A stretch of 64,000 nt of DNA. It comes from a virus. The notes under the pieces are model-generated. The model ran no database searches. It saw nothing but the letters and a program-made list of their open reading frames with translations, and was not told the origin of the DNA. The position numbers were made by a program, and so were the translations under genes. Below are positions 6,267 to 58,118 of this stretch, one piece after another (the first letter of the stretch is position 1; each line of letters starts with the position of its first letter). The stretch lies in IMG/VR virus record IMGVR_UViG_3300042259_000159. One strand, given 5' to 3'.

Positions 6267-6391
6267 AGAATACTCCTTTTTCGCACAGAAAAGGGGTTTT
6301 AAGCCCCGTTTATTTGTTTTGTGGACAATGAGATGTCATTGCATCTACCATCGCTTAGAACCAATTCTCGAAAGAATTGGCTCCAAGAGGG

Positions 6392-7006
6392 TTAGATGCC
6401 GAATACATCCTTCAGTACAGTGAAGAACAGCGTTCGAGTGTCATCCTTCCCACCATATTCAGGATGGGGTTGGAAGCACAGGCTCTTAGTCTTCGGGTAG
6501 ACGACAATTTCAGCTTGGTCGTCACGAAGAACAGAGCGCACCCTTCTTTCAGCCGAGAGAAGAGTGTTGTCGATGCAGTCTTCCACTTCTCCGAATCCTT
6601 CAAGACGACCATGACGGGCAGGAATCATCATCTGGTGGTGAGTGGAGGTGACTTTGTACTTTTCTCCCCTCCAATCGAGAGTGTGTGTGCCTCTGATGGC
6701 ATGACCCGTGACATCCTGCCGCATACTTCCACCATTCATCACATTGAGGAATTGCCCCCCACGGCATATTCCCACCAATGCTGCGTTGTGTTGTGTGGCA
6801 AAGAGGTAGTTGGTTATGTCAGCAATGTCTCGCTGAATACAATTATGGGAAGCCCTGTTGAGTTCACCATACAGAGAAGGGGTGACATCATATCCGCCAG
6901 AGAACACAAAGAGGTCAGCTTCCTCCATCTGTGTTGTCATCTGGTAGCCTGCATTGAGGAACATGGTGGACACAGCAATGTCTTGCGTAGACATAAAGAA
7001 TTTCAT
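6392..7006 (-). CDS. class I glutamine amidotransferase-like protein (gamma-glutamyl hydrolase type)
   Basis: Track ORF 204 aa. Nucleophile elbow GICRGGQ. Confidence 0.7.
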   Translation of the reverse strand: MKFFMSTQDIAVSTMFLNAGYQMTTQMEEADLFVFSGGYDVTPSLYGELNRASHNCIQRDIADITNYLFATQHNAALVGICRGGQFLNVMNGGSMRQDVTGHAIRGTHTLDWRGEKYKVTSTHHQMMIPARHGRLEGFGEVEDCIDNTLLSAERRVRSVLRDDQAEIVVYPKTKSLCFQPHPEYGGKDDTRTLFFTVLKDVFGI

Positions 7007-9028: not shown

Positions 9029-9274
9029 TTACTTCCTCCTCTCCATCCATATCTGACGTATCTCTTGGAAGAGACTAAGACCTTCATGAAGAATAAGTGC
9101 AAGCACCCCTACCCAAGACAACACCGCAACAATAGCACAAACGATGAGTGCCTCACCAAATGTGTTGACATAACATCCATACGTCCTTTGTAGGCCAATA
9201 AGGACTAGGCAGCCTATATATGCAACAACTACCCCGCTCAGGTAAGTGGAAACGACAAGCTCTATTCCCGTCAT
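9029..9274 (-). CDS. small membrane protein (two hydrophobic helices)
   Basis: Track ORF 81 aa, strongly hydrophobic. Confidence 0.45.
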   Translation of the reverse strand: MTGIELVVSTYLSGVVVAYIGCLVLIGLQRTYGCYVNTFGEALIVCAIVAVLSWVGVLALILHEGLSLFQEIRQIWMERRK

Positions 9275-9427
9275 TTTACTTCCTCCGTGCTTTGTCCAGC
9301 ATCATCCTCTGGTTTTCAGACAGTTGTCCCCAATACACTTGGGGATTGTACAAGGCTTTCCACGAGGGCAGACGCAGTTCCTTAGCCAGTGACTTTTCTA
9401 TTGCGTTAGGCATAACCTTCATCCTTG

Positions 9428-9766
9428 TTAATATTCATAGTATTCGCGTAAAGCGTCGTTGTTCCATGCCGGCTCATACACAGGCTTGTCATGTGCTTCT
9501 GCGAGCTTGTGAAGCACGTCGACAATGAAGGAAACGCCATTCTTTGCTTTCTTCGGATTGTTCTTCAGCTGGGCTTCAGCCGCAAGTCTCCCTACCCACT
9601 TCACATATCGGTCAGAGTTGGAACACTTCGCCACACCATACTCCACCTCTCCACTAGGGAGAGAACGGTATGCCACCGTAGCTCCACCGAAAGGATGATA
9701 AGGGTAGAAGTCACCGTTACGGTTGATGTAGCTGCGGCGGTAGTGAAAGAACGACACTTTATCCAT
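9428..9766 (-). CDS. hypothetical protein, PFGGATV-motif paralog family
   Basis: Track ORF 112 aa with HPFGGATVAYR...GVAKCSNSDRYVKWVGR; shares the motif with 9784-10050 and 28085-28573. Confidence 0.55.
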   Translation of the reverse strand: MDKVSFFHYRRSYINRNGDFYPYHPFGGATVAYRSLPSGEVEYGVAKCSNSDRYVKWVGRLAAEAQLKNNPKKAKNGVSFIVDVLHKLAEAHDKPVYEPAWNNDALREYYEY

Positions 9767-9783
9767 TTCTATTCTCCTTTGTC

Positions 9784-10050
9784 CTATTCCCAGCGACCAC
9801 GGTAGTCAGGTGTATTGTATGCTGCTCTTATGTACGCTACTATTCCATCGAACACGTCTTTTTTCATTGTTAAAGGGGCAGACAGAGCGTCTATGTATGC
9901 GAGGTTACGCCCGATGCGTTTCACATACTGTTCAGAGTTACAGCATCGGGCAAGGCCAAATGCTACAGCATCCCCTACCTTGCGGTAGAAAACAGTAGCG
10001 CCACCAAACGGATGAAGACGCAATTCACCTTTACGGCTTATGTAGGGCAT
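9784..10050 (-). CDS. hypothetical protein, PFGGATV-motif paralog family
   Basis: Track ORF 88 aa with HPFGGATVFYR...GLARCCNSEQYVKRIGR; tandem paralog of 9428-9766. Confidence 0.55.
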   Translation of the reverse strand: MPYISRKGELRLHPFGGATVFYRKVGDAVAFGLARCCNSEQYVKRIGRNLAYIDALSAPLTMKKDVFDGIVAYIRAAYNTPDYRGRWE

Positions 10051-16953: not shown

Positions 16954-17502
16954 TCATATCATGCTTGTATCTTTTATAAACCGCCAAGTATATCCAGCAC
17001 TTTTACCCTTTTTGTTTTTGCAGCACTTGGTTATACCCGACCCACTCTTAAGCCCTACCGCTTTTGCAGCCTCCTTATCATCACTAAATATTTTTCCTGT
17101 CTCTAGACATACAATAAACTCCCCCCTTCTCCTCCTTCCATGTATGGTTCTCTGTCTGCGTTGTTCAGCGGTAACAGATTTATGACACGCTTTGCAAAGA
17201 ACCCTTAATTTGCTCTCATCACAAAACATCCTCTCCATTACCTCAGACCAATCCATTTCATAAATAGTCTTCTCAAGAGGTATTACAGGGACAATATGGT
17301 CTACCTCAACACCGGATGCTCCATAGGGCTTTCCACATATACTGCAAATAAAGACCCTCCCCCCTCTCGGTCCACGAAGTGTTGGATGTGTGGCCTTATT
17401 CAGCACATTGCGTACAATGGGCGAGCGCGAAAAAGTTCTCCGCATACAAGACATGATGGCATTGTGTGGTTTCCATGTTTTTTTATCCTTCTTCGTTTTC
17501 AT
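16954..17502 (-). CDS. HNH endonuclease
   Basis: Track ORF 182 aa; HNH core VDHIVP...LCKACH with extra Cys pairs. Confidence 0.7.
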   Translation of the reverse strand: MKTKKDKKTWKPHNAIMSCMRRTFSRSPIVRNVLNKATHPTLRGPRGGRVFICSICGKPYGASGVEVDHIVPVIPLEKTIYEMDWSEVMERMFCDESKLRVLCKACHKSVTAEQRRQRTIHGRRRRGEFIVCLETGKIFSDDKEAAKAVGLKSGSGITKCCKNKKGKSAGYTWRFIKDTSMI

Positions 17503-18064
17503 ATATCTCCATAAAACTCTTTACCACCTCCAAACTGTCATAAGGGTAGAAGTTTCTACCAAACATTTTTACAGAGATGTTATACGGTTTTCTAGGCATC
17601 ATTATTCTTATCCTAGAATCATCAAACATCTGAACTGTGTGTGGATGGTCATCAACAAAGACAAGGACATTATTCTCTTCACAAAAAGGGTGTTTCTCAT
17701 CCCAGTCACGGTTGAATATTCTAAAAACAATATCATCGCCGTATATCTGGTGTAACATACCCTGTGTGTCTGCGTTTGTTTCTCTTTTACGTGCAGTGAG
17801 AATATCAACACTACCAAAAAGTTTCATGCTTTTACCAACCACATTAACAGAATAATCAACAGGTTTGCTGTGTTCCGCATACTTAAAAACATAGTCACAA
17901 AGAAGAGAATGTGTCTCCTTCTCACTCATATTTCCAACAGTTTTAATATACTCATTTCCTGTAGTATGAATACCATGCTCCATCTTTAGTCCATAAACAA
18001 TACATGGAAAGGTTTCAACAAGGGTATTATCAAGATCAAAAACAAAAGGGTTTAGTGCCTTCAT
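17483..18064 (-). CDS. HAD-superfamily phosphatase (probable nucleotidase)
   Basis: Track ORF 193 aa; motif I FDLDNTL near the N-terminus and a later VDDH-type acidic motif. Confidence 0.65.
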   Translation of the reverse strand: MKALNPFVFDLDNTLVETFPCIVYGLKMEHGIHTTGNEYIKTVGNMSEKETHSLLCDYVFKYAEHSKPVDYSVNVVGKSMKLFGSVDILTARKRETNADTQGMLHQIYGDDIVFRIFNRDWDEKHPFCEENNVLVFVDDHPHTVQMFDDSRIRIMMPRKPYNISVKMFGRNFYPYDSLEVVKSFMEIYENEEG

Positions 18065-21051: not shown

Positions 21052-22685
21052 TGGCAATAGGAGGTTATACAAATATGCGGAAAAGGTCTTTTGAGTATAC
21101 CCCGACAGAGACGGTTGAAGAGGTTAATAAGTACCCTTTTGCCATATGGGATGAGAGAGGAATTAGACCAGAAACATTCAAACGTTTTGGTGTAAGAATG
21201 GCCCGTTCCAGCGACGGTCTTTCTGTTTCAGCTATATATTACCCCTTTTATTCTCAGGACAAGAAGGTTTGTGGATATAAGAAGCGCGACCTGACAAAAG
21301 ACAAGCATGAGAGAGGCCACTTCACTGTGATAGGGCATGTCGGGGTAGATTGCATGCTGTTCGGGCAGAACCTTGCAAAAAAATCAAAGAAGGTTTTTAT
21401 TGTTGAGGGAGAAAACGATGTACTGGCTTCATATCAGGCCATGAAGGACTTCATCCTTAAAGGCAAGCCAGAATACAGAAACATGGAACCACCTGTGGTA
21501 GGCTTGTCATGTGGAACAGCAAATGCAGCAGCTGCTGTTGCAACAAACATAAGTTTTATAAACAGTTTTGATGAGGTCGTTCTTGGTCTTGACAATGATG
21601 AAGCAAACCTTGTCGAAAAAAGAAAAGGGGTGAAGAAGGGGAAAGAGGCTACGGAGGATGTTGCAGGCATCCTTATGCGCGACAATATCTTTGTGGCGCA
21701 CTACGAGGATGGATTTAAAGATCCAAACGATTATCTCATGCAAGGTAAGAGCACTCTTCTTGCAAACACGCTCATGTTTACAAAAAACAGGTATGTTGCA
21801 GAGAAGGTGGTGGGTGCCTCAAGCTTTTCTTTTGAGGAGATTATTGCTGAAAAAGAAAAAGGTGTTTATGTAGAGTCTTTCCCGAAAGTTATGGACATGA
21901 TATATGGGATAAGAAAAAGGGAGATGATTGTTATTACCTCAATGTCCGGTGTTGGTAAAAGCTATTTTACATCAGAAATAGGTTACAGTCTTCTGGAGAA
22001 AGGTGCCACAGTGGGAGCAATTTTCCTTGAAGAAGAGGGTAAAGAGACAGTGCAGAGGATTGTGGCAAGAAAGGCCAAGATAAACTTCAACAAGTTCAGA
22101 TTTGCTTGCAAGAGCCTTGCCTCTATTGAGCAGTTGAGGCAGGCATACGATTGGACAACGGGGAAAGATATAGGGAAAGAAAGGCTTTATACCCTTAACC
22201 ATTTTGGTTCCTTGCGTATTAATGACTTGATGAATAAGATAAAGTATTTGACATATGTTTGTAAATGTGACTATATCCTTCTTGACCATTTAAGTGCTGT
22301 TTTGTCTGGACAAGATAGTAAAGATGAACGCAAGGAATTTGATATCCTTATGACCGAGCTTGCTGCTTTTGTATCCTCAAACGATGTTGGCATCATTGCC
22401 GTGTCACATCTTAATAGAAATGCAGCAGAGGAGATTAGAGGTCTTTCAAACCTTAAAGAACCTAAATGGATATGCACCAAGAAGGAAGACCTCAGGGGTT
22501 CAGCGAGCCTTGAGCAGTTCTCATGGATAATTCTTGGGATTGACTTTGAGGTTAGACCTGATAGAACCAGAGGAAGAGCACGGATTACCGTTCTTAAAAA
22601 TAGACCTCTGGGAACAATCGGTGTTGGTGATGTTTTTATATTGGACAATGATACTGGCCTCTTTATTAACGCAGATATTGTATAG
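21051..22685 (+). CDS. primase-helicase (TOPRIM + DnaB-like helicase, T7 gp4-like)
   Basis: Track ORF 544 aa; TOPRIM VEGENDVLAS, Walker A ITSMSGVGKS, Walker B region CDYILLDHLS. Confidence 0.85.
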   Translation: MAIGGYTNMRKRSFEYTPTETVEEVNKYPFAIWDERGIRPETFKRFGVRMARSSDGLSVSAIYYPFYSQDKKVCGYKKRDLTKDKHERGHFTVIGHVGVDCMLFGQNLAKKSKKVFIVEGENDVLASYQAMKDFILKGKPEYRNMEPPVVGLSCGTANAAAAVATNISFINSFDEVVLGLDNDEANLVEKRKGVKKGKEATEDVAGILMRDNIFVAHYEDGFKDPNDYLMQGKSTLLANTLMFTKNRYVAEKVVGASSFSFEEIIAEKEKGVYVESFPKVMDMIYGIRKREMIVITSMSGVGKSYFTSEIGYSLLEKGATVGAIFLEEEGKETVQRIVARKAKINFNKFRFACKSLASIEQLRQAYDWTTGKDIGKERLYTLNHFGSLRINDLMNKIKYLTYVCKCDYILLDHLSAVLSGQDSKDERKEFDILMTELAAFVSSNDVGIIAVSHLNRNAAEEIRGLSNLKEPKWICTKKEDLRGSASLEQFSWIILGIDFEVRPDRTRGRARITVLKNRPLGTIGVGDVFILDNDTGLFINADIV

Positions 22686-22698
22686 AAGGAGTAGTGAA

Positions 22699-25119
22699 AT
22701 GAGATTCTTTACAATGGACTCTGAAGGAGATGGACTTGTAGATGAAATAACTAAGTTCCACTGTATTGTCTTCAAGGAGTATAAAAAGGAAAACATTTTT
22801 GTGTTTGTCGACAAAGAAAGAATGACAAAAGACATCTCAAAAGGTATAGAAAATGTATTCTCTAAATACCGTTTTACTTGGGGGTATATAGAGGATTTTC
22901 CCAGATTCCTTAAGAGTGATATTGTTGACGGATTTCATTGTCATAACTTCTTCGGATTTGATCAGAAGGCCATTGAGAAACTGATACCGGAAATAAAGTT
23001 TAACCCCTTCATCAGACGTGAGGGGGTTCCGAGTACTGTTAATGTTGGTGGTTTTGAAAGAGACATACACATTTATGACACCCTTCCAATGAGCAGAACG
23101 CTGCACCCAGACAGACCCCTACCTTCTGGGTGTCCTGCTAGGATTAAGAACCCTATAACAGGGAAGATGCAAAATGTTGGCCCCCACGGTTTTCAGGCTT
23201 GGGGATACCGTGTTGCAAGAGCAAAGCCGCAGATCGATGATTGGATAAATGACACACTTTTTAACTATATACAACGGTGTGTTGCAGATACTGAAATCGG
23301 TGAAAAGGTTTGGGATGCCCTAAGGGTGGAGGCTCAAGACATAGCCACGGGTGGGGATTGGAAAAAACCGCTTAAGACATCAATGATAGATTTTTTTCTG
23401 TTTTGTGGTCAAGAGCAGGAAGGTGCCTTGTTGGATAAAGAGAAAGCGAAGACCCTTTGGGAAAGTATAAATAAAATGATGAAGGAGATAGCAGATGATG
23501 TAAATGCCTATCTTCTTGAGAAGAATGTTAGAAGGCCCCTTCCAAAAACAAAACAACCTAAATATCCTGCACAAACGTTTAAAAAAGACGGCACTCTAAC
23601 AAATAATGCACTCAAGTGGTGTGATAGGGTTGGTATACCAGAAAAAGACGCTGAGAAGGCCATTCTGTGCATAAATAAGGCACTTAAAGAAGGGGATGAG
23701 AGTGTCCTTGAAAGGTATGTTTTGACGGAACAAGTCACTATTGCACACGATGCAGCCATTAAGGAGTATCTTGTGGAAGAGGGTTGGGTTCCTACTCTTT
23801 GGAATATAAAAAACGCTTTTGTGAATCAGAAGAAAAAGGACTACACTCCTGAAGAGGTAGATGCAAACATTGCAAAGTATATCAGTGAACTGAAGACAAG
23901 CCCTTATAAAAGATTTATTCTTAAAGAGTTGGATTGGGAAGGCATGGACACTGATAGAGCTTTAAGTACCGAATCCTTCAGGAAGCATGTAAAAAGTAAA
24001 GGTAGGCAGCTTCCCACAACACCTAAAATAAAGGATGCCGCCACGGGTCGTATATGTCACAACCTTGAAGAGATGGATGGTGATTTTGCAAAGAAGGTTG
24101 TGAAATATGGTAGTTTGGAAAACAGACGTAATGTAATTCTTAGTGATAATGGAACTGGTTGGCTAACACACCCTAGACTTGAAAGGGACGGAAGAATACC
24201 TGCCAGCCATACAGGAACCACAAATACACACAGAGTTAAGCATTCAAACATCGTTAATATACCCAAGCCCGATCCTAAGGTTCTTTTGGGGTATGAGATG
24301 CGTGATCTTTTTGTTGCTCCTGAAGGGTGGATGTGTGTTGGGTGGGATAGTGCCGCTCTTGAAAACAGGGTTGCGGGGAGTGCTGCATACCCCTATGATG
24401 GGGGCAGATATGCAGATATTCTTCTCTTAGCGGACAGCCATACCCTTAATGCCCAAGCTTATTCTAAAGCAGCGGGGAAGGAAATCACAAGAAATAATGG
24501 CAAGTCTGTGACGTATGGAATTTTATACGGAGCACAGGCAAAAAAGGTTGCAAAAATGCTTGACATTTCCGTGGAAAAAGCACAAGATGTTATCAATGCT
24601 TTTTGGGATTCCAACGATGGTTTGAAGAAGTTTAAAGAGCATCTTGAGGCTTATTGGGAGAGCACAGGGAAAAAATACATCCTCGGACTAGATGGTAGGA
24701 AGGTTTATACAAGAAGTAAGCACAGCCTTGTAAATGCAGCCTTCCAATCCTGCGGTGCCATTCTTATGTCGCACACTATGGTGGAGATTGAGTATAGAAG
24801 GAGAGAGCAGGGTCTTATTGCTCCTCGTTGGGGATTTTATCATGATGAGGGGCAGTATTATATTCCTTTTACAAAAGATAAAAGTCTTTTTGATTTTGTG
24901 ATTCAGGATGAAAAGGATACCCCAAAACCAGATGACAGGATGTGGACAAAAGCAAGAGAGATAAAAGAAGGCAAGGCGGCAGGCAAGTTTGTGAGGTATT
25001 ACAGCCGTTTTGGAGAGTTGTGTGTTGAAACCCATAGGGATGTAGGTGTAATGCTTGGTATGAATATTCCTCTTGACGGGGAATACATGGTTGGTAAGAG
25101 TTGGGCACAAACACATTAA
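22699..25119 (+). CDS. DNA polymerase, family A, with 3'-5' exonuclease domain
   Basis: ATG at 22699 after aaggag; Exo motif MDSEGDGL; polymerase motifs VGWDSAALENRV and K...YG (YGAQAKK). Track ORF extended upstream in-frame from an alternative start. Confidence 0.85.
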   Translation: MRFFTMDSEGDGLVDEITKFHCIVFKEYKKENIFVFVDKERMTKDISKGIENVFSKYRFTWGYIEDFPRFLKSDIVDGFHCHNFFGFDQKAIEKLIPEIKFNPFIRREGVPSTVNVGGFERDIHIYDTLPMSRTLHPDRPLPSGCPARIKNPITGKMQNVGPHGFQAWGYRVARAKPQIDDWINDTLFNYIQRCVADTEIGEKVWDALRVEAQDIATGGDWKKPLKTSMIDFFLFCGQEQEGALLDKEKAKTLWESINKMMKEIADDVNAYLLEKNVRRPLPKTKQPKYPAQTFKKDGTLTNNALKWCDRVGIPEKDAEKAILCINKALKEGDESVLERYVLTEQVTIAHDAAIKEYLVEEGWVPTLWNIKNAFVNQKKKDYTPEEVDANIAKYISELKTSPYKRFILKELDWEGMDTDRALSTESFRKHVKSKGRQLPTTPKIKDAATGRICHNLEEMDGDFAKKVVKYGSLENRRNVILSDNGTGWLTHPRLERDGRIPASHTGTTNTHRVKHSNIVNIPKPDPKVLLGYEMRDLFVAPEGWMCVGWDSAALENRVAGSAAYPYDGGRYADILLLADSHTLNAQAYSKAAGKEITRNNGKSVTYGILYGAQAKKVAKMLDISVEKAQDVINAFWDSNDGLKKFKEHLEAYWESTGKKYILGLDGRKVYTRSKHSLVNAAFQSCGAILMSHTMVEIEYRRREQGLIAPRWGFYHDEGQYYIPFTKDKSLFDFVIQDEKDTPKPDDRMWTKAREIKEGKAAGKFVRYYSRFGELCVETHRDVGVMLGMNIPLDGEYMVGKSWAQTH

Positions 25120-26356: not shown

Positions 26357-26768
26357 CATGCGTAAAACTCTTTTTATTATTCGGGGTGCTTCCGGTTCCG
26401 GTAAAAGCACTCTTGCTGATGAGATTGATAACATTTTGCAGGTTTGGGAAGCAGATATGTATTTTACAGATGCCATTACTCAGGAATATAACTTCATCCC
26501 TAAACTCCTCCCGCTGGCTCATAAGTGGTGTCAAAATCAGATCCGTAAGTGTATGGAGCGCGGTGACAAGAGAATTGCTGTGGCAAATACCTTTACAAAA
26601 AACTGGGAAATGAAACCATATCTTGACATGTGTGAAGATTTTGGTTACACTCCTTTCGTAATTCGCTGTGAGAATGCTTTTGACAATATCCACGATGTAC
26701 CTGAAGATGTTGTCAAGAAACAACGCGAACGTTTTGAAGATTATGGAGTAACTAAAGATGTCTCGTAG
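26357..26768 (+). CDS. P-loop kinase (polynucleotide/nucleotide kinase-like)
   Basis: ATG at 26357; Walker A GASGSGKST. Track ORF 26289-26768 begins upstream from an alternative start. Confidence 0.6.
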
Positions 26769-26988
26769 GGTATACACAAAAACTATCAAGACAGAAAAGG
26801 AAGTCGCATTTACCGAATTAACATGTGACGAGTGTGGCAGAAAAGAAGAAACAAGCGCAGACGAATTGTTCGGATGGGATGCTATGACGTATGGTGGTAA
26901 GGTATACGATATATGCCCCTCGTGTGCTGAGGCTTTGGCTACTATTGTACAATCTATGAAAATAGAAAAGCAAGAAAATCTATACTAA
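26758..26988 (+). CDS. small zinc-ribbon protein
   Basis: Track ORF 76 aa; CDECG...CPSC. Confidence 0.4.
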   Translation: MSRRVYTKTIKTEKEVAFTELTCDECGRKEETSADELFGWDAMTYGGKVYDICPSCAEALATIVQSMKIEKQENLY

Positions 26989-27011
26989 CCTGTTATAAGA
27001 AAAGGCTAACT

Positions 27012-27545
27012 TTGGACATCTTCTTTATAACTTTTATTCTGTGGTTTGGAGGGGAGACTATTCCCGATGATCTCCTGCACGATACAATCAGTGAGGTTGT
27101 CGATATTGTATGTTCTCAGCACCACATACCGGACAAGGAAAGTTTTAAAAGGCTTTTATATGAGACTGCTCAATATGAAAGTGAGGGTGGAATATATATA
27201 GAACAGCTTTCCGGAGGAGGAGCAAAAGGTATCTATCAGATAGAGCCTTTCACAGCGGAGTGCATAAAAAGCAATTGGATGAAATATAACGCTTCCAGCG
27301 GTGTTGAGACACTTTATAAAAATGCCTATGAAAGCGGCATGGGCTTGGAGTGGAATCTAGAGGTTAATCTGGGGTTTCAAACACTTATAGCCTCTTTGAT
27401 TTACATTTCAAGAATGAATAAAAAAGACCATGCCCTAATAAAAACCTTGACAGGAAGGGCAAAAGTGTATAAGAAGTATTTTAATACACCACTTGGAAAA
27501 GGAACAGTTCAAGGGTATATAACCAAAAACAAAAAGGAGAAATGA
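27012..27545 (+). CDS. hypothetical protein, possibly lysozyme-like/transglycosylase
   Basis: Track ORF 177 aa (TTG start in track); ESEGG...GGGAKGIYQ vaguely SLT-like. Weak. Confidence 0.3.
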   Translation: MDIFFITFILWFGGETIPDDLLHDTISEVVDIVCSQHHIPDKESFKRLLYETAQYESEGGIYIEQLSGGGAKGIYQIEPFTAECIKSNWMKYNASSGVETLYKNAYESGMGLEWNLEVNLGFQTLIASLIYISRMNKKDHALIKTLTGRAKVYKKYFNTPLGKGTVQGYITKNKKEK

Positions 27546-27802
27546 TGAGTATTTACACACCGAAAGAGGTAGCAAATGTAGCAATGGATATCGTTCTGAA
27601 GGAGGGCATTGCACGTCTTGAGTATGATAAAGATTTTATCCGAAAGATTGAAAACACCCTTCAAGAAGCAGGGTACTTTAAGGTAAACATTACCGATGCA
27701 CAGAAGCGTCACATTGCAAAAGCAATGCTTAAGGATGTGACACGATGGCATGAAAGTCGCCGTAAATATATGGCAGAAAGCCGTGGACATAAGAACTGGT
27801 AA
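27542..27802 (+). CDS. hypothetical protein
   Basis: Track ORF 86 aa with RBS aaggagaa. Confidence 0.4.
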   Translation: MMSIYTPKEVANVAMDIVLKEGIARLEYDKDFIRKIENTLQEAGYFKVNITDAQKRHIAKAMLKDVTRWHESRRKYMAESRGHKNW

Positions 27803-28084
27803 GTCTTAATTCCTCGACTGGCCAGTCCCATTCAGACGTTTAAGGAGTACAAATGCTTGCTTTTTGTTCGCAAGACGAGTTTGATTTTTCAGAGGAAAAA
27901 CAGGAAAGACGTGTAAACCGTATGAAGAAGGGAAGTAAACGGCTTACTAAAGAAGATCGTAAGAAGATAGTTAAACAAAGGCGTATACTTAAGAACAAAG
28001 AGGGCTTCAGGGATGAAGAGCATGATGGTGAGTATATCTAGCGCACCACACTCAAAATGCCTGAGAAAAAATAAGGAGAACACT

Positions 28085-28573
28085 GTGGAAAAGATGAGTG
28101 AAAATATGAGCCTCTATGATTTTATTCTTGAGGATCTTGCAAAACTTAAAGGTACTACGAAATACGGGCACTACCGTCACAAAATGTTAAAGCTGCTTCC
28201 ACGTATAGGCTTTTTGGGTGATGCCGGTTACTACCCCTTTGGAGGATGTACTGTAGCACTTGAGTTCACTAATGTAGGTGTTGCTATAAAATACGGAGTA
28301 TGCAACGAGGTCGATCGCTTTGTTAAAAGCCTCGGAAGGGCTTGTGCAAGATCAAAAAAGCCCTCACAATTTTATCCGTATGAGAAACTTCTAGAAGACA
28401 TCCTTCAGGATGAAGAATGCCTTACGGATGACAGCCTTGCATGTAAGCTTGATATCGCACTGACAACCCTAGATACCTTTAGACGCATGATCATACAAAG
28501 AGCCTACCAGAAAGCCGAGGAAGGTCTTAAGAAGGCAGGATTTAAAGAGAAAACATTCTACATTCTGAAATAG
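28085..28573 (+). CDS. hypothetical protein, third member of PFGGxTV-motif paralog family
   Basis: YYPFGGCTVALEF...GVCNEVDRFVKSLGR shares the motif with 9428-9766 and 9784-10050. Start placed at GTG after aaggaga; start uncertain. Confidence 0.45.
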   Translation: MEKMSENMSLYDFILEDLAKLKGTTKYGHYRHKMLKLLPRIGFLGDAGYYPFGGCTVALEFTNVGVAIKYGVCNEVDRFVKSLGRACARSKKPSQFYPYEKLLEDILQDEECLTDDSLACKLDIALTTLDTFRRMIIQRAYQKAEEGLKKAGFKEKTFYILK

Positions 28574-28647
28574 GCATTTATCACCTTGACAAGCATCTTA
28601 TCTTAGGATAGGGTGCTTTTATTATTTTCAATTACAAGGAGGATGCT

Positions 28648-30024
28648 ATGGAGATGTTTTTTAGCAACAAAGAGGTTATCAGGGCTTGGGAAAATGTTGT
28701 GAAAAAACTTAACGCCAGCGGTTTTAAAGGTGCCATTGTTGGCGGTGCAGTTAGGGATGTTTTTATGGGAAAGACTCCCACAGATATAGACATTGCTACA
28801 AATGCAACACCAGAGGAGGTTTGTAGCATCTTTAAAGGTGCTAAACTTGTTGGTGAAAGCTTTGGTGTTTGCCGTTGGAATGGCTATGAAATTGCTACTT
28901 ATCGAAACGATGTCCACAACGGTATTGGTGATACTTGTTGCACCGTGAGGTATACAGACGATCTCATTGAAGACCTTAGGCGTAGAGACTTCACAATGAA
29001 TGCTTGTGCATATGAGAGGCATCCTGACGGGACAACGCATTTTGTTATGGCACAGGCAGGTTGTCTGGATGACATCGAGAATAAGCGTCTTGATTTTGTA
29101 GGCAATGCTGAAGATAGAATCAGGGAAGATCCCAACCGCAGCTTCAGAGCATACCGCATGATTTGCAAAACAGGCTTTCTGCCGTCATATGCTACAGCAA
29201 AGATAATATACAACAGAGGTATTGTTGAAAAATATCTTCCGTACATTGCACCTGAGAGGATAGGTAAAGAGCTTATAAAATCTATGGAGGAGCCTTTCTC
29301 TTGGAATTTTTTTAGGTGTCTTTACAGGTCTGGTATTATGTACACTCTCATCCCTGAGATGGCACAGGCTTGGAATATTTGGGGAGGAAAATACCATGCA
29401 GAGTACGTTGGTGAACACCTTATGGCTGTTGGTATGGGTATCTCTGCAAAATTCCCCTTGCTGAGGCTTGCAGGGTATCTGCATGATGTTGGTAAGGGGG
29501 TAACACACGAGGATGGCAGCTTCATCCGGCATGAAAAAGAGGGCGTGCATATTGCGCGGAGGTTTCTTAAAAGCCTTAAGTTCTCTACAAAAGATACAGA
29601 GAAGGTTTGCAATATAATTCGTTGCCATATGCGTAGATTTGGTGAGAATGAAACGCCTGCTACAAACAGGCGAACCCTTGCATATCTTGCAAAACACAAT
29701 GTCTGCACATACGATTTCATCCGTTTGCGGATTGCGGATCACAACGGCAACTTTGCATGCAAGAAGATGAAATTCAGAGATATTAAGTCCCTTGTCAGAT
29801 GTTGGGACACCTATCAGTTTGAAAAACAAGCTGCCCATAGTAGGAAAATGCTTGCCATTAATGGCAGGGATATTATGAAAGAGTTTAATATCCCTCCGTC
29901 AAGACTTGTTGGGGAGATGATTGAATTTGCCCATAATATTGTTCTTGACAATGTTGATAAAAACGAATATAGTATCCTTATCAATGAAATTAAAAAGCGG
30001 TTCGGAGGTAGCAATGGCGAATGA
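28648..30024 (+). CDS. cca: tRNA nucleotidyltransferase (CCA-adding enzyme) with HD domain
   Basis: Track ORF 458 aa with RBS caaggagg. Polymerase-beta head motif GGAVRD...DIDIAT and HD motif LHDVGK. Confidence 0.8.
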   Translation: MEMFFSNKEVIRAWENVVKKLNASGFKGAIVGGAVRDVFMGKTPTDIDIATNATPEEVCSIFKGAKLVGESFGVCRWNGYEIATYRNDVHNGIGDTCCTVRYTDDLIEDLRRRDFTMNACAYERHPDGTTHFVMAQAGCLDDIENKRLDFVGNAEDRIREDPNRSFRAYRMICKTGFLPSYATAKIIYNRGIVEKYLPYIAPERIGKELIKSMEEPFSWNFFRCLYRSGIMYTLIPEMAQAWNIWGGKYHAEYVGEHLMAVGMGISAKFPLLRLAGYLHDVGKGVTHEDGSFIRHEKEGVHIARRFLKSLKFSTKDTEKVCNIIRCHMRRFGENETPATNRRTLAYLAKHNVCTYDFIRLRIADHNGNFACKKMKFRDIKSLVRCWDTYQFEKQAAHSRKMLAINGRDIMKEFNIPPSRLVGEMIEFAHNIVLDNVDKNEYSILINEIKKRFGGSNGE

Positions 30025-40414: not shown

Positions 40415-41269
40415 TCATGACTCCACGGAATCAAGCAAACTTGGCTGCTTATTTCTACGGCTAATAGCCTCGGCGTCTAGCCGCTTAGCGATTATCTCGC
40501 AGTACTTTTCTTCGCGCTCTATCAGGATCCAGCGGCGGCTAGCACGCTCGGCTGCAACTGCTGTTGTGCCGCTGCCCGCGCAGAAATCAAGCACTGTTTC
40601 ACCTTCGTTGGTGTAGGTTTTGATGAGGTATTCCATTAGGGCAACAGGTTTTTGGGTTGGATGGAGTGCTTCAGAGTCTTGGCTAAATTTAATAACACCG
40701 CGAGGGTAGTTTGTAAATTCTTGTTTATAGCTTTCAGATTTGGTCAGATCATTATGTACACTTGTCCTATCCCCATTCTCTTTTAGAGAATCCTTCCGTG
40801 TCTTTGTCCCCGTGTTTTTTACCACCTTGTCCACCTTTACAAGCCCCTGCGCGTTATAAGTTGGCTGCTTGCGGTAGAATACAAGCACGTCCTCAAATCC
40901 TTTTAGCGGCATCCTTTTGGCATTGGGGAAATTTGTTGGACGACCTTTCTCCCAGACCCATGTGTATTTAAGCATTTTGAGATTACTAGCCCCCAAAAGA
41001 CTTGTAAACGGCTGGCTAGCAGTCATAACAACAGCCCCACTAGGCTTGATAGCCCGCTTCAACTGCTCCCACATTGGCTCTAGCGGAATAATGCTATCCC
41101 ACTTACACGCCGTCATTCCAATTCAGCCGTAGGGTGGATCGCATAACACCAGGTCTATAGAGCCGTCTGGGATATATTTCATAACCTCAAGACAATCTCC
41201 ATGAACCAACGTGTTAGGCAATACGCACCCTACGTGCTGTATCTCCTTTTCGTTAGTTATAGTAAACAT
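40415..41269 (-). pseudogene. beta-class N6-adenine/N4-cytosine DNA methyltransferase interrupted by an in-frame TGA
   Basis: Upstream segment MFTITNEKEIQHVGCVLPNTLVHGDCLEVMKYIPDGSIDLVLCDPPYG ends at TGA (41123-41125), then continues in the same frame as track ORF 40415-41116 (HPTQKP, DFCAGSGTT). Confidence 0.6.
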
Positions 41270-42592: not shown

Positions 42593-43417
42593 TTAGATGA
42601 TTGCTTTATTCTCATGTGCACTCTCAATGCGCCGCTTGGCAATGTTGAAATAGCCTTGGTCTAGCTCAATACCGATAAAGCAGCGGTTCAGCAGCTTGGC
42701 CATCTTGCCAGTCGTACCGCTGCCCATGAAGGGGTCGAAAATCGTATCGCCTTCGTTTGACCAGCTTGATATATGTCTTTGCGCTAATTTTTCAGGAAAA
42801 ATTGCAGGGTGCTTAAACGCCTCACTATCCATTGTTGAGTGACCTTTACCTGTCGTTATGTACCATATATTTCCATCTATCTTATCTAATCCAACTGGTT
42901 TCCTTTTCTTGCCACTTCTGGCACTGCGCATTTTTTCAGTTGTAGATGAAAAATAACTGTTCTGACGTGAAGTTTCTTTTTCCGGATATTTTGTCGGAAC
43001 TCGAATGGCGTTAAAGGTTTTAGGTCTACCCTTACTAAAAACAAACATATACTCAAAATCTTGTTCGTATCTGTTGTGGTTTTTCGGTAGTGCGTTTTTA
43101 TGGTATATCATCGTATCATGCAGCCGGAAGCCGCACTCCATAGCCCACAATGCTTGCTTAAAGCTAGTACCTGTCTCACTACCCTTAATCGTGGCGTCAC
43201 CAACAACCCAAACAACAACCCCACCATCTTTAGTAACACGGTATAGGTCTTTAATAACCGCCTTCCAAACATGCTCTCCCCACAACGCATTATTGCCGTT
43301 ATAAGTGCGCAGATTATCGTATGGTGGGCTTGTTACCGTTAAATCAACAATACCATCAGGTATTTCTTTCATCCGCTCAAGGCAATCGCCTAGCATCAGC
43401 TTAATCATCATCACCAC
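42593..43417 (-). CDS. beta-class N6-adenine/N4-cytosine DNA methyltransferase
   Basis: Track ORF 274 aa; motif IV SPPY near the N-terminus, HPAIFP, motif I DPFMGSGTT near the C-terminus. Confidence 0.8.
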   Translation of the reverse strand: MVMMIKLMLGDCLERMKEIPDGIVDLTVTSPPYDNLRTYNGNNALWGEHVWKAVIKDLYRVTKDGGVVVWVVGDATIKGSETGTSFKQALWAMECGFRLHDTMIYHKNALPKNHNRYEQDFEYMFVFSKGRPKTFNAIRVPTKYPEKETSRQNSYFSSTTEKMRSARSGKKRKPVGLDKIDGNIWYITTGKGHSTMDSEAFKHPAIFPEKLAQRHISSWSNEGDTIFDPFMGSGTTGKMAKLLNRCFIGIELDQGYFNIAKRRIESAHENKAII

Positions 43418-43634: not shown

Positions 43635-44351
43635 TTATATTTCCGAAAGACGCTTGTTTCCCCTGAACCTTTTACCTTCCGAGTAATTTATTCTCTCCTC
43701 AAGATCAAGCATCCTCGCCCACAATTCCGGCTTATTATTTTTAACAGCCAAAAGGCTGTCCAAGGGTTGAAGGGGGCAGCAATAGCAGGATACCCTATTC
43801 ATGTGTTTGTAGAGGCCCCCCCAATCAAAGCCCCTATCATAGCAGTATTCAAGGGCTGATTTTTCGTCCATATCCCACTCTATCAAAGGAAAACGAAGAA
43901 TCCATCCATGTTTTTCAGCATTAGCATTCATTGTTCTAGAGAGCGCCCTCTCTGATTCATCTTTTGCAAAGCCAATACACTTAACAATGTTACCATCTAT
44001 TTTTTTATAGCTCATCCCCCTCAAATAGTAATCAAAAGCTTTTATCTTTTCTCTTGTACACCACCTTCTAGACGGTGATGGCCATCCAACACCACGGCAC
44101 CTTACTTCTTTAGTCCCCCTAGAGACCACTTCGTGCTCCGTAAGCCAATAATCAAAGGGTTTGTTTGGTTTGAGTATGGTGATTTTGCGAGAAATATAGT
44201 CTTCAACCTTTTTGATATGATCATACATCTCGGGAAATTCCCAACCTGTGTCAAACATAACAATGTCTTCAATCTTTTCTCCACATTCAATGGCCTTCAA
44301 AAGCATTGCTGTAGAATCCTTTCCCCCGCTAAAACTAAAAAATTGTCGCAT
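43635..44351 (-). CDS. PAPS reductase-like / PP-loop ATP pyrophosphatase family protein
   Basis: Track ORF 238 aa; PP-loop FSGGKDS at N-terminus and C-terminal Cys cluster CYCCP. Confidence 0.65.
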   Translation of the reverse strand: MRQFFSFSGGKDSTAMLLKAIECGEKIEDIVMFDTGWEFPEMYDHIKKVEDYISRKITILKPNKPFDYWLTEHEVVSRGTKEVRCRGVGWPSPSRRWCTREKIKAFDYYLRGMSYKKIDGNIVKCIGFAKDESERALSRTMNANAEKHGWILRFPLIEWDMDEKSALEYCYDRGFDWGGLYKHMNRVSCYCCPLQPLDSLLAVKNNKPELWARMLDLEERINYSEGKRFRGNKRLSEI

Positions 44352-46871: not shown

Positions 46872-47999
46872 TTAATCCTCCCTGATATATTGTCCTACAG
46901 TATTCCCTTGCGGAATACCATCTTTCGAAAACTCCTGAAACTTAACATTAAGCCACTTGCCAATATAGCTGTCTTTGTACTTTATAATTTGCTCTCTATA
47001 GGCATCCTCCCCCATAGGTCTAACTTCAAAAATCTTTTTATTCTGGGTTTCACAGACAAACATACCTTGGCGGTATGCAACACACCCGTCTGTATTATAG
47101 ATTGGTTTTGTTTCCACCACATCTACAATTTTAAACTCATTATCCATAAAGCTTTTATATTTCCACAGGTGAGGAGACCTAGTACATTCATAGGGGGCAT
47201 CTATTCTTATTATTATGCCCTCAAATCCTTGCTGAACACGTTCGTTACATATCTTCTCCAAGGAATCACAGGAAGGCAGTCTCATATCCTTCTGCTGGAG
47301 GAGGGTGTTTGGGGTAAGAAAGGCAGTTCTTTCCCTATAAGTAAGATGCTCCATCCCCTTAATATAAACATCAAATACTACAAAGTCAATATCATATATT
47401 TCAGCATTACCTGTCTTTACAAATGAGTTGATATCTTGTAAGGGCATCCCGTGCTTATAAAACTCCCCATCAAGTATTACATTCTCCTCCTTGGCCTTCA
47501 TCCCTCTTGCAATCCTTGATATAAGAGCCTCTGACTGGTAATACGCACGGCATTGTAAAGGCACCTTGGAATATTCTACATTTTTACGTGAGAAAAACAG
47601 CCTTCTCCTGTCAACTTCTTGGAAGGTGGCTCGTAACCCGTTTAACTTATTTTGAAGCACCACAGACCCGCCCACGGCCATTTTTTCCATACGTCTATAG
47701 TTTTTCCTTCCGTCCTGCGCCTTCATAGGGTAGAAGGTGGAACCCCACTGTTCAATATCTTCGACATACCCTTTACGCTCTATCTGCTTCCTGTGCAGGG
47801 CGGCAGCTTCAAGACGTGCCTGTTCCTCTGCTGTTGTCTCATTTGCTTTCCCTATATTCTTACCGTTGCAAACCGTTTTTCTTTTTGTTTGTTTACCGCC
47901 CTGTGTTCCGTGGATAACAGTGAAGGAATCTCCCTCAACAAAGATCCTCCACTCCCTGATTTTGCCTTTTCTATCTTTAGCATATAGTGTGGAAAACAC
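46872..47999 (-). CDS. ATP-dependent DNA ligase
   Basis: Track ORF 375 aa; motif I KLNGLR, motif III ILDGEFY, motif IV EGIIIR, motif V LWKYK. Confidence 0.8.
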   Translation of the reverse strand: MFSTLYAKDRKGKIREWRIFVEGDSFTVIHGTQGGKQTKRKTVCNGKNIGKANETTAEEQARLEAAALHRKQIERKGYVEDIEQWGSTFYPMKAQDGRKNYRRMEKMAVGGSVVLQNKLNGLRATFQEVDRRRLFFSRKNVEYSKVPLQCRAYYQSEALISRIARGMKAKEENVILDGEFYKHGMPLQDINSFVKTGNAEIYDIDFVVFDVYIKGMEHLTYRERTAFLTPNTLLQQKDMRLPSCDSLEKICNERVQQGFEGIIIRIDAPYECTRSPHLWKYKSFMDNEFKIVDVVETKPIYNTDGCVAYRQGMFVCETQNKKIFEVRPMGEDAYREQIIKYKDSYIGKWLNVKFQEFSKDGIPQGNTVGQYIRED

Positions 48000-48848: not shown

Positions 48849-51800
48849 CTAAATGCTTTTATCTACAAACTTTCTCTGTGGAAAATCAAATTCCCGCCTT
48901 GTTTTATTCCAAGCTTTTACGGGTGTAAAAAACCCAACAACCCTTGTCAGCTGTGTACTTATATCTTCCGAACATATGGGGCATGTACTGAAGGAACCCA
49001 TAGAGACATGGGAGTTGATACACTCAGAGTATACGGTATTAATGGCAAAATGTTCACATCCACAACCCAAAGCAAAACAGATAATTTTCTTGGCCTGCTC
49101 TCTTGTCAGCCTCTGCCCGACAGTGGCATGAACAATCCCCCCGCCTGTTAGGTTTTTAGTATATTCTCCGTCAATTCTGAGCCTGTCCCACAGAGATGCC
49201 TCTTCCCACAAAGGAACAAACTGGTTTGCATAGAGAGGGTATTCTATAAAAGTATCGCCGTGAATGATCTTATCTGCGCTGCAAACTTTTACAGCCATAC
49301 TCTCTGCTGGGATTTGCTCAATGTTGAAGACATATCCTGCGTTCTTCTTGGTATACAATCTAGCTTTTCTGTTAAGAAATGTCAAGATCTTTTTCTTCAA
49401 ATCCCCCTCAACACCGAACCTTTGTTTAAGAACCTTTTCACACTCGTAAAGACCAAGAATACCAAACGTTGAAAAGAGCCTGTTGAGGTCTATCCACCCA
49501 CGCGTTATAAAAGGCTGAAGACCTATTTGTTCAAGGACATGAATCAAGACCTTATGAGCAATCAGAATATCTTTAGCAGCCTCTACACGGTACGTGTATA
49601 TTTTCCAAAAATCATCAATACTCTCGGCCTCAATTGCCATCTTGTTGAAATTAAGAGTAACAACTCTATGGCTCCCGATGCTGGAAAGAACACCGGCACC
49701 GAAAGAATTGGAGGTGGATGCCACATCTAACATCTCTTCATCATTGATCAATCGGCAACAGCTAGCGATCTTTGTGCTCTCAGATGTGAAAATATTGTAG
49801 CGCGAAATGTCTCTATTAAGAAATATTTCCAAACTCTCTTCGTCTGCAAGGATGTAATCATCGCCGTCCTTAGTTTTTGAAATGTTCATCGTGCAAACAG
49901 GGAACCTGTAAGGCATCCCGTTATTTGAGGGATCTCCTTTATCAAAGATGTCTAGGAATATTTCCTGCAATTCAAAAACATAGTCAACACACTCTTCTAT
50001 ATCTACAACACCACCATCTGAAAACATCCACAAAAGATGTTCCTTTATGATGTACCTGAGTTTGTGTTTATCAAACACCGATACATTGGTAAAGGGACTC
50101 TCAACTCCGTCACGACTCAAATGGTTTACGCTGTGAATAAGCTGTTGAAACTCGTTTTCTATCTCTTTCCTCACAGCCTTATCGTTTTTAAGCACATCAA
50201 GGGGAACCTTATTCTTTATCATGAGAAGGTGAGCAACATCTATAAATACAGTACCTATGGCTAGAGCACCAGCAACATGCGATGACATTTGGTGGATTGT
50301 CTCACACAGGGCGGCAATATAACTATTAACTCTTTTTGCCGGTTTAGAGGGCAATACTCCAAAAGTTCTTCCTTCTGTAATGAGATTTGTTGCGTTTAAA
50401 GAATAACAATTATGTTGCACCATTCCGTTTGCATAAAAACGGCCCGTTGCTGTTGTCAAATCATATACGTCTTGAAGCTCCTCTCTAAGCTTTCTTGTAC
50501 TAGGAATGTCTTCAAGATTAAACCTGATGATTTTTACAACCCTGTTGCTTTCGCCCTTGGTGTTTGCTTTTTCATTATACTTATCATAGTCTTCTTTATG
50601 CATCTTCATCTTATCAGAAAGATCAACCATCTTATTCGTACTTGACGGGACAAAGGAAAGGGCATAAATCGAATTAGAAATATCACTCCCTTTTATCCTT
50701 TTTCTAAGGCATCGAATACCTTCAATGCCTCTAAGGACGTCATAAAGTGTGTTTATTACTGCCATAGACTGCAAACAAATCTCCACCCTGCCATTCTTTT
50801 TGTAGGTATATCCGTCCGCGTCTACAAGCCCCGCAACAAGTGCCTCTACAGAATCATTTGTCCAAGAGAGGATGTTCTTAGGAAGAACCTTTGTGAAGCT
50901 ATTTTCTTTGTTCCCGAAACCAAAAAAGGCACTTACAAGAAAATTCATATCATAAGAAGACCAATTAATCTGTCTCTCGACTTTATCACTGGGCTTAAAA
51001 AGATTCGCATCAGGAAACAAGTCTTTTATGATACTATAAATTCTTGAGTTATCAATATCGTTTTGATAAACACTGCAAAGCGTTCCCCCTCTTGTAAATC
51101 TGAAAGAGCCTTTTATGTCCTTACCGTTCATTACGCCATCATCAACACAATACCCTTCAAAGTTCCCATCACCAAGCATAAAGCCAAGAAGGTAGGCCAG
51201 CTTTTCTGGAACAATTATTGTTTTTTCCACGGAGGGCAAACAAGTCTCTGTCAAAACAGCATCCCCAACAGAAAGTTCTGAGGCTATTTTTTCAGTTCCA
51301 TCTTCCATATAGATTGGGTGGTTGTCTGTTACCAAAGCAAAGTGCCCTGCCTCTGTCTGATACAAAGAGAATCCTGTATCCGTTTTATGCTTGATAATAC
51401 GTTGTACAGCAACCCATCCATTGTTTGTATCCCAAACCTCTATATTAACTTTTTCACTCACATTGCAGGCCAACTTACCGGAACGACCTTTTGCGGTGTT
51501 CTTGTTAGTGATGTTCGCACTCACATTATTACGCAGCATTGCTGTTGTAATCTCTAGATCTCTTGTAAGGCCTTTTGTGTTAATTTCCTCATGCGTACCC
51601 CTATTTTCGGAGTGTATTGCAAACATATTGAAAAGCTTTTTAAGAGGAATACAAATAATCTCTCCGTTAATTCTGACAAAAACAGGCGTGTTTCCATAAT
51701 ACGAATATGGAAGGTTTAGCTTCGTGCTGTCGGAGATGGGAAGACTGAAATCCAACATTTCTCCTATAAGCCTTTTAGCCCTCTTCTTGCCGTAGAGTTC

Positions 51801-53590: not shown

Positions 53591-53612
53591 TGAAAAAGCC
53601 GCTTTTAGCGGC
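53591..53612 (-). terminator. rho-independent terminator
   Basis: Minus-sense hairpin gccgctaaaagcggc followed by ttttt, at the 3' end of the phosphoesterase gene. Confidence 0.5.
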
Positions 53613-55654: not shown

Positions 55655-55658
55655 AGAA

Positions 55659-55730: not shown

Positions 55731-55738
55731 AAATTTTT

Positions 55739-58109: not shown

Positions 58110-58118
58110 TAAAATCTT

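Follow-up and report, generated by a model that had tools for sequence, protein, structure and literature searches.

The window analysed here is a 64,000-nt stretch of viral DNA (IMG/VR virus record IMGVR_UViG_3300042259_000159), and its segment from position 26,357 to 30,024 carries a gene for a tRNA nucleotidyltransferase of the CCA-adding type and, upstream of it on the same strand, a gene for a small P-loop kinase. The original prediction, made from the sequence, had grouped these two genes with a metallophosphoesterase and with phage tRNAs as a candidate toolkit for tRNA repair and anti-defence. We found that both genes belong to known RNA-repair families and that the CCA enzyme is of an ordinary, widely annotated kind. 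The kinase stop codon and the CCA start codon are 1.88 kb apart, with four or five unrelated open reading frames (ORFs) of the + strand between them (Table 1).

Table 1. Features of the window discussed in the text (L002 and L011 are metagenomic sibling phages; aa, amino acids).
Feature	Positions	Strand	Remarks
Family A DNA polymerase	22534-25119	+	First gene of the long + strand block that holds the kinase and CCA genes
Predicted stand-alone minimal polynucleotide-5'-kinase-like P-loop kinase, 136 aa	26358-26768	+	AAA_33 / PHROG 2071
Ligase insertion point (kinase 3' end/start of next ORF)	26706-26840	+	1.3-kb RNA-ligase insert in L002
Zinc-ribbon ORF (CxxC...CxxC), 76 aa	26758-26988	+	Pfam matches sub-threshold only; counterpart in L002 interrupted by insertion sequence (IS) remnant
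Intervening ORF, PHROG 3108 (unknown)	27012-27545	+	Kept in L002 and L011
Intervening ORF	27542-27802	+	Kept in L002 and L011
Intervening ORF	27853-28041	+	Kept in L002 and L011
PFGG-motif paralogue	28013-28573	+	Directly 5' of CCA gene; kept in L002 and L011
Terminator-like hairpin	28591-28618	+	12-bp stem and T-rich tail; in the 75-bp gap 5' of CCA gene
Putative class II CCA-adding tRNA nucleotidyltransferase with C-terminal HD phosphohydrolase domain, 458 aa	28648-30024	+	Pfam, PHROG, NCBIfam, alignment
Pol-beta nucleotidyltransferase head (aa 30-148)	28735-29091	+	Motif A G32G33..R36D37..D46xD48; motif B R112R113D114
HD metal site (aa 250-364)	29395-29739	+	H250, H279-D280, K283, H295, H327, D364
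N-terminal helix-turn-helix (HTH) plus metallophosphoesterase	53605-54579	-	Fold, metal ligands; probably outside the RNA-repair set
tRNA-Thr(UGU) without encoded CCA	55582-55654	-	ARAGORN; Rfam 66.3 bits
tRNA-Gln(UUG) without encoded CCA	55658-55731	-	3 nt upstream of tRNA-Thr

The CCA-adding enzyme and its candidate tRNA substrates

The 458-aa ORF with the motifs GGAVRD...DIDIAT and LHDVGK is present exactly as the original prediction described it. Its product matched the Pfam families PolyA_pol (PF01743, E 6e-22), PolyA_pol_RNAbd, HD (E 1e-12) and tRNA_NucTran2_2, all above threshold, as well as PHROG 2244, 'tRNA nucleotidyltransferase' (E 3e-56), and the actinobacterial CCA model TIGR02692 was matched full length, over residues 15-436. 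Just downstream of the Pol-beta head lies motif D (E160 D161..R164), the EDxxR nucleotide-selection pocket. The HD domain scored 48.7 bits against PF01966 (threshold 22) and 33.5 bits against the HDIG model TIGR00277 (threshold 27.6). When the protein was aligned with 38 relatives of 35-41% identity, the residues of motifs A, B and D and the HD ligands were invariant across all 39 family members, and the catalytic Asp residues, on which the prediction of a nucleotidyltransferase had been hung, are all kept.

Two results speak against this assignment. The protein stays under every NCBIfam equivalog cut-off (NF009814, 164 vs 290 bits; TIGR02692, 150 vs 438.8 bits; NF008137, 86 vs 451 bits) and is therefore a divergent member; and in the single-sequence search of the PDB the top match was E. 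coli PAP I, slightly ahead of the Bacillus/Geobacillus CCA enzyme 1miv (E 6e-27 vs 5e-25). Given that this search marginally favoured the E. coli poly(A) polymerase (PAP), we tested the possibility that the protein is PcnB-like, or adds A only or CC only, and is not a full CCA-adding enzyme. Sequence alone cannot fully separate CCA-, CC- and A-adding enzymes, and the pcnB model TIGR01942 scored 128 bits. With the family profile, however, the CCA enzymes 1miv (206 bits) and 6ibp (204 bits) ranked above E. coli PAP (186 bits), about 20 bits apart. The flexible loop between motifs A and B, which is shortened in CC-adding enzymes, is of CCA length and without deletion, aligning with Geobacillus CCA 1miv without a gap, whereas E. 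coli PAP requires a 10-aa insertion. The PAP signature LVGRRFRLAHV is absent, the corresponding residues being LVGESFGVCRW, and an HD domain, which PAP I does not have, is present. The closest source-named cellular homologues are titled CCA tRNA nucleotidyltransferase. Rv3907c of M. tuberculosis, which has the same three-domain layout, was likewise first annotated as a PAP and proved experimentally to be CCA-adding, with HD-dependent phosphatase activity (PMC10673834). Because of the profile ranking, the ungapped loop, the missing PAP signature, the presence of the HD domain and the Rv3907c precedent, we filed the protein as a predicted CCA-adding enzyme of the HD-bearing bacterial type and rejected the poly(A) polymerase reading as highly improbable.

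The protein shares with bacterial class II CCA enzymes bearing an HD domain (E. coli Cca, named a 'multifunctional CCA addition/repair protein'; Rv3907c; TIGR02692) the order of Pol-beta head, RNA-binding neck and body, and HD domain, together with all catalytic motifs and HD ligands. It differs from them in being phage-encoded and divergent, as the equivalog scores also indicate, with about 35-43% identity to any relative beyond its own strain variants. The HD domain of the E. coli enzyme has 2',3'-cyclic phosphodiesterase and phosphatase activity, according to the work of Yakunin (2004) as related in passages of PMC10673834 and PMC2190708. The closest relatives are viral or metagenomic, and the source-named cellular ones include the candidate phyla Glassbacteria and Shapirobacteria. 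Homologues were found in 435 phage records and mostly bear the annotation tRNA nucleotidyltransferase; these PHROG 2244-type enzymes, annotated in Vibrio, Klebsiella, Erwinia, Aeromonas, Caulobacter, mycobacterial and jumbo phages, are of the same family, with the same presumed role of restoring or adding CCA in tRNA-encoding phages. Most of the phage homologues listed align over the N-terminal half to two-thirds only, whereas the protein of the window is full length with its HD domain, as is its homologue from Nitratidesulfovibrio phage SRB7757 (43% identity).

The phage tRNAs were called by ARAGORN and scored with Rfam, and their 3' ends were read directly. The expectation of several tRNAs lacking an encoded CCA was borne out in part: such tRNAs exist, but 'several' overstates the case because only two of the eight, tRNA-Thr and tRNA-Gln, lack the triplet, CCA being encoded in the other six. 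Judged by their sequences, these two are likely substrates of the CCA enzyme. One of the remaining tRNAs, the tRNA-Leu(UAG) at 55246-55314 (- strand), measures only 69 nt, its anticodon falls at position 27, and its Rfam score of 37.8 bits is lower than that of any other tRNA in the set, so that either its structure is atypical or its type was called wrongly. A second tRNA-Leu(UAA)/tRNA-Leu(UAG) pair, which differs from the first Leu pair, lies at 58023-58202 (- strand), beyond the gene for TnpB and in a stretch of higher GC content, and each tRNA of this pair is followed by the same AAGATTTTAG.

The polynucleotide-kinase-like protein and the sibling phages

The second gene, predicted as a P-loop kinase from its GASGSGKST motif, is a real ORF, although its start is the ATG at 26358 and not position 26357. 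The product matched Pfam AAA_33 above threshold (E 1.6e-9) and PHROG 2071 ('ATPase', E 4e-32), and PHROG 505, 'polynucleotide kinase', more weakly (E 1.7e-5). A single-sequence search against solved structures gave P-loop noise only; a family profile and a structure prediction were therefore needed. The AlphaFold2 model (mean predicted local distance difference test score, pLDDT, 91) was compared by Foldseek, and the matches were led by the kinase domain of C. thermocellum Pnkp (CthPnkp; 4jt2/4gp6/4gp7, TM [template modelling] score 0.72-0.74, E about 4e-7 to 4e-6) and T4 Pnk (1ly1, TM score 0.69), followed by tRNA-bound PSTK and mammalian PNKP. A profile of 48 family members retrieved the same polynucleotide kinases by sequence. 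Comparison by profile and structure, which had been proposed as a check, thus returned the nucleotidyltransferase as CCA-type by profile and the kinase as nearest to the CthPnkp and T4 Pnk kinase domains. It had also been considered that the protein might be a deoxynucleoside monophosphate (dNMP) kinase only; the fold and profile matches are polynucleotide kinases instead, and no dNMP kinase was among the 50 Foldseek matches listed. A separate AAA_28 protein encoded at 45139-45693 matches a thymidylate-kinase PHROG.

The P-loop of the small protein spans G10-T18. The invariant D33 aligns with the general-base Asp of the known enzymes (T4 D35, Cth D38), and T78 aligns with T4 T86 in the profile alignment; the protein thus shares with the kinase domains of CthPnkp and T4 Pnkp the fold (TM score 0.69-0.74), the P-loop, the catalytic Asp and the conserved Thr. 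It departs from them in several respects: the family is about 130 aa long and fused to neither phosphatase nor ligase, it has Phe in place of the acceptor Arg, an Arg (R9) directly before the P-loop is invariant, and no partner is found in the window. The best description of the 136-aa protein, on the strength of its sequence and predicted fold, would be a polynucleotide-kinase-like enzyme of minimal size that stands alone and whose acceptor site is altered. The family is large, with at least 555 relatives (555 of 600 pattern-matched stretches of viral contigs), and the source names of the relatives are generic, such as 'predicted kinase' or 'deoxyadenosine/deoxycytidine kinase'.

Two siblings of the phage were available for comparison. 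The metagenomic sibling L002 is syntenic with the window at 90-96% DNA identity, and differs at the 3' end of the kinase gene: window positions 26358-26745 correspond to L002 10001-10388, and window positions 26706-26840 to L002 11723-11858. The insert in L002 encodes a 423-aa RNA ligase (PF21189 OB plus PF09414 RNA_ligase) whose start overlaps the kinase stop codon; 3' of the ligase gene come a second, decayed copy of the kinase 3' end that carries a frameshift and, after it, an IS remnant. In the window and in the third sibling, L011, the kinase runs directly into the zinc-ribbon ORF without a ligase. Of three phages that are 90-96% identical, one therefore has a ligase behind the kinase and two do not. 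The simplest reading is that L002 gained a segment comprising a kinase 3' end and the ligase from a phage that had both genes as an operon.

Two further observations concern the same place in L002. An IS200/605-type TnpB is encoded in the window at 56728-57846 (- strand; PHROG 506, E 2.5e-119), in an element at 56.6-57.8 kb, and its 3' flank (56587-56803) recurs at L002 11850-12065 with 97.7% identity, directly after the ligase insert and within the zinc-ribbon ORF, which it disrupts; in this phage lineage the element seems to be active, or to have been so recently. On the other side of the kinase, L002 has at 9253-9996 two additional small genes, of 136 and 85 aa, that separate the DUF551 gene from the kinase. 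The window has only 172 bp there, and the kinase is thus flanked by a second hotspot of indels.

Neighbourhoods, partner genes and rival readings

All ORFs within ±5 kb of the kinase were clustered in 78 non-redundant viral loci and the recurrent clusters were named by Pfam; the same was done for 79 loci of the CCA enzyme. A further 149 loci (1.25 Mb) anchored on unrelated phage genes, from different phage types, served as controls. The kinase had a Metallophos neighbour in 33 of the 78 loci (median 552 bp away, on either side), an RNA ligase in 21 (16 of the T4 Rnl1 type and about 6 of the PF09414 type), NUDIX in 16 and HAD_SAK_2, the 'Swiss Army Knife RNA repair' HAD, in 10; at least one of Metallophos, Rnl1 and HAD_SAK_2 was present in 46. 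Among the 79 CCA loci, a RlaP nucleotidyltransferase was found in 46, a HAD-like protein in 23, Metallophos in 8 and an RNA ligase or RtcB in 10, with any of these in 57. RlaP adds nucleotides to cleaved tRNAs ahead of ligation (PMC12776372); 58% of the viral CCA relatives thus have it as a neighbour, whereas none lies beside the gene of the window. The control loci contained Metallophos of the kinase-linked type in none, a ligase in one and RlaP in none, and the enrichment had Fisher p-values of about 1e-10 to 1e-27, which overstate significance because phage loci are not independent. The focal proteins in the locus sets were diverse, with a median pairwise identity of 42-53%. Each family is tied to RNA-repair genes in other viral contigs far above background, and since both families sit in RNA-repair neighbourhoods, the spirit of the original prediction is supported.

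The two families do not sit in the same neighbourhoods. The kinase occurred beside the CCA enzyme in 0 of the 79 other CCA loci, and a match to the CCA profile was found in only 4 of the 78 kinase loci, each time to a short HD-less nucleotidyltransferase or a lone HD protein; kinase and CCA enzyme are not a conserved pair. In locus L046 (4486-5390) the small kinase overlaps a stand-alone HD protein, and in locus L086 (91-5399) a CCA-type nucleotidyltransferase, Rnl1, Metallophos and the kinase share one cluster. These two loci are natural examples of a complete repair cassette that is not seen in the window.

Partner genes were then sought in this genome with hidden Markov models built from the neighbour clusters and with phmmer seeds, filters off (positive controls, E 3e-52 and 4e-130). 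The genome measures about 117 kb (at least 117), of which the search covered about 89 kb, namely the 64-kb window and 25 kb of flanks. No Rnl1, PF09414-type ligase, RtcB or RlaP was found in this sequence, nor was HAD_SAK_2, the CCA-linked HAD or Nudix. The flank beside the unseen part of the shorter of the two contigs that make up the window looked structural. The only Metallophos echo was the weak match (E 8e-4, filters off) of the metallophosphoesterase listed in Table 1. Candidates for a 3'-phosphoesterase are the CCA HD domain 1.9 kb off, a DxDxT protein (17483-18064) and the Mre11-like metallophosphoesterase 27 kb off; none adjoins the kinase. The HAD-like DxDxT ORF could not be assigned as a Pnkp-type 3'-phosphatase, because a weak match to PHROG 415 (E 9e-5) was all that it gave, and neither Pfam nor the PDB yielded a usable one. 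The ATP-dependent ligase of the phage, at 46872-47999, also matches the RNA_ligase Pfam model.

The calcineurin-like metallophosphoesterase that had been placed in the same toolkit is a real metallophosphoesterase by fold and ligands, but does not look like the RNA-repair type. Its score against Pfam Metallophos was 17.6 bits, under the threshold of 21.5. The metal ligands D66-x-H68, D124, H171, H208 and H249-x-H251 are invariant; the AlphaFold2 model reached a pLDDT of 93, and all 50 of the 50 Foldseek matches listed were metallophosphoesterase-fold proteins, the best among them being Mre11 and the PolD DP1 proofreading exonuclease. The gene lies 24 kb from the CCA gene and has as neighbours ThyX, NrdG, NrdD and the DNA ligase. 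Because of these folds and these neighbours, the protein looks like an enzyme of DNA metabolism and not an RNA end-healing phosphatase. Its family is widespread (111 matches) and mostly unannotated, and most members have about 240-290 aa and no HTH.

Of the readings considered, the one we lean towards is that of two separate accessory genes for RNA-end maintenance, in which the CCA enzyme would finish and maintain tRNA 3' ends and the kinase would be what is left of a healing-and-sealing module, or an optional half of one. The Pol-beta head would add C, C and A to tRNA 3' ends without a template, with the EDxxR pocket choosing CTP or ATP, and the HD domain, as a metal-dependent phosphohydrolase, would free the ends of 2',3'-cyclic or 3'-phosphates in the manner of the E. 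coli and M. tuberculosis enzymes, so that CCA could be added anew. During infection the enzyme would most likely complete the CCA-less phage tRNA-Thr and tRNA-Gln, and it would probably also maintain the 3' ends of phage and host tRNAs when these are trimmed or damaged. The small kinase is predicted to phosphorylate the 5'-OH termini of broken RNA or DNA with the gamma-phosphate of ATP, D33 serving as general base. The normal setting of its family is beside a metallophosphoesterase and an RNA ligase, which would amount to a split version of bacterial Pnkp or of T4 Pnkp/Rnl healing and sealing, and in the phage of the window this module may have been reduced to the kinase alone.

Several points weigh against the reading of two RNA-end-maintenance genes. 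The acceptor-contacting Arg of the known kinases (T4 R38, Cth R41) is replaced by F36, which is nearly invariant in the kinase family, and the lid Arg could not be aligned. No ligase or repair-type phosphatase was detected with the kinase in the roughly 89 kb searched, which leaves room for other substrates, DNA 5'-OH ends among them; some 28 kb of the genome lies outside that search. Finally, the metagenomic viral contigs behind the neighbour counts lack phylogenetic independence, and the controls were drawn from different phage types.

That the kinase, the CCA-HD enzyme and the metallophosphoesterase form a coordinated anti-defence toolkit, jointly healing tRNAs cut by host defence nucleases, is unlikely. 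What stands of the predicted toolkit are the intact catalytic residues, the Pnk-like kinase, the RNA-repair neighbourhoods elsewhere and the two CCA-less tRNAs. Both focal families are embedded in RNA-repair clusters in other contigs, a few of which combine a CCA-type nucleotidyltransferase, Rnl1, Metallophos and the kinase (L086) or have an HD protein abutting the kinase (L046); the HD domain could provide the 3'-end healing that the kinase lacks; and the idea has been published for jumbo phages (PMC7824862). Overall, the predicted toolkit is supported in part only. The kinase is missing from the other CCA loci, and without a ligase, RtcB or RlaP in about 89 kb the halves of a cleaved tRNA would not be rejoinable by phage enzymes of known kinds; a repair-type phosphatase was not found there either. 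Between the kinase and the CCA gene stand four or five unrelated genes as well as a terminator-like hairpin, and the metallophosphoesterase is distant, Mre11/DP1-like and part of a DNA-metabolism block.

It is similarly improbable that the 136-aa protein serves replication or nucleotide metabolism, as a kinase of nucleotides, nucleosides or DNA ends, and not RNA repair. The gene follows the DNA polymerase within a block rich in replication genes, no RNA-repair partner was found in the scanned part of the genome, the acceptor-contacting Arg of the T4 and Cth kinases is missing, relatives carry names such as 'deoxyadenosine/deoxycytidine kinase', and T4-type Pnk enzymes also phosphorylate DNA 5'-OH ends. 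However, by fold and by profile the protein comes closest to polynucleotide kinases and to tRNA-bound PSTK, with no dNMP kinase among the 50 matches listed; the family is strongly tied to Metallophos, RNA ligases and HAD_SAK_2; and the genome already has the separate AAA_28 protein that matches a thymidylate-kinase PHROG.

More doubtful still is a ligase-less, split form of end healing, in which the CCA HD domain would act in trans as the 2',3'-phosphoesterase partner of the small kinase and sealing would be left to the phage ligase at 46872-47999 or to a host ligase; damage at the acceptor end would need no sealing, because the CCA head rebuilds that end. If this were true, the presence or absence of the ligase among the siblings would mark a continuing adjustment of these phages to hosts that differ in their tRNA-targeting defences.

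The reading of two separate maintenance genes can be set beside systems already described. In phage T4, healing and sealing of tRNA by Pnkp with Rnl1 and Rnl2 counters the anticodon nuclease PrrC. The kinase of the window is of the same superfamily as that of the T4 pathway, and the sibling L002 has overlapping genes for the kinase and an RNA ligase. The phage of the window differs from T4 in that neither an RNA ligase nor an assignable 3'-phosphatase was found in its scanned sequence, and the known T4-type pathway could therefore not be completed with the phage genes found there. In other contigs, the links of the kinase family to a metallophosphoesterase and an RNA ligase correspond to the functional trio of Pnkp or of T4 Pnkp/Rnl (PMC2190708). 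For jumbo phages, Iyer et al. (2021, PMC7824862) have set out how CCA enzymes, polynucleotide kinases and calcineurin-like or HD phosphatases encoded by the phage would serve RNA repair, and an anti-defence role is a published hypothesis. Among the papers searched, none described an experiment on a CCA enzyme encoded by a phage, in counter-defence or otherwise; a 2026 paper on Mom mentions a CCA enzyme as a laboratory reagent only.

If the predicted activities hold, the phage would secure its own tRNA supply by finishing and repairing 3' ends while keeping one piece of a pathway that heals broken RNA. This is relevant to the ways in which phages with tRNA genes deal with the trimming or cutting of tRNAs by their hosts, a concept that is already in the literature. 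The extras offered by this locus are modest but may prove more useful. One is the stand-alone Pnk-like family of about 130 aa (at least 555 stretches), which is experimentally uncharacterised and tied to metallophosphoesterases and RNA ligases like a Pnkp split into genes; the other is the set of three siblings, one ligase-plus and two ligase-minus, which makes a natural comparison for the contribution of the ligase.

Gene block and other features of the window

The window is phage-like, with an anaerobic ribonucleotide reductase carrying an intein, ThyX, an ATP-dependent DNA ligase, HNH endonucleases, the IS200/605-type TnpB and 8 tRNA genes. It consists of two IMG/VR contigs of metagenome 3300042267, _000152 (1-59584) and the reverse-complemented _000191 (from 59458), joined over a 127-bp overlap (59458-59584) that is typical of an assembly-graph join; an identical protein is also encoded on a JGI contig of 117,169 bp. 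No near-identical annotated phage turned up among 50,697 phage records when the region was searched by megablast. The best relative at the protein level was the unannotated Nitratidesulfovibrio phage SRB7757, with which the CCA gene is the only gene in common within ±10 kb.

As far as their sequences tell, the ORFs between the kinase and the CCA gene are unrelated to RNA metabolism or repair. The PFGG-motif ORF before the CCA gene is one of three small paralogues with the pattern PFGG(A/C)TV...G(L/V)A.C and no Pfam or PHROG match, the other two lying at 9428-9766 and 9784-10050 (both - strand). The position of the terminator-like hairpin is only a weak hint that the CCA gene might be transcribed separately, because the number of terminator-like sites in the region was not above chance (7, against 7.1 expected from shuffled sequence); promoter counts in the region were likewise not above the shuffled expectation.

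NrdD (1123 aa; 48849-52220, - strand) is split by an intein (Pfam Intein_splicing, residues 258-604), and an NrdG-like activase is called beside it in the source contig; the presence of NrdD and NrdG suggests an anaerobic host. Four stretches of the - strand (5055-7006, 40415-41116, 42593-43417 and 43635-44351) comprise two glutamine amidotransferases, two apparent methyltransferases, which were judged from sequence only, and a PAPS-reductase-like gene; this group may consist of DNA-modification genes. Near the end of the window, two full-length group I introns (Rfam RF00028, 76 and 78 bits) lie about 160 bp apart on the + strand, at 63359-63571 and 63728-63997.

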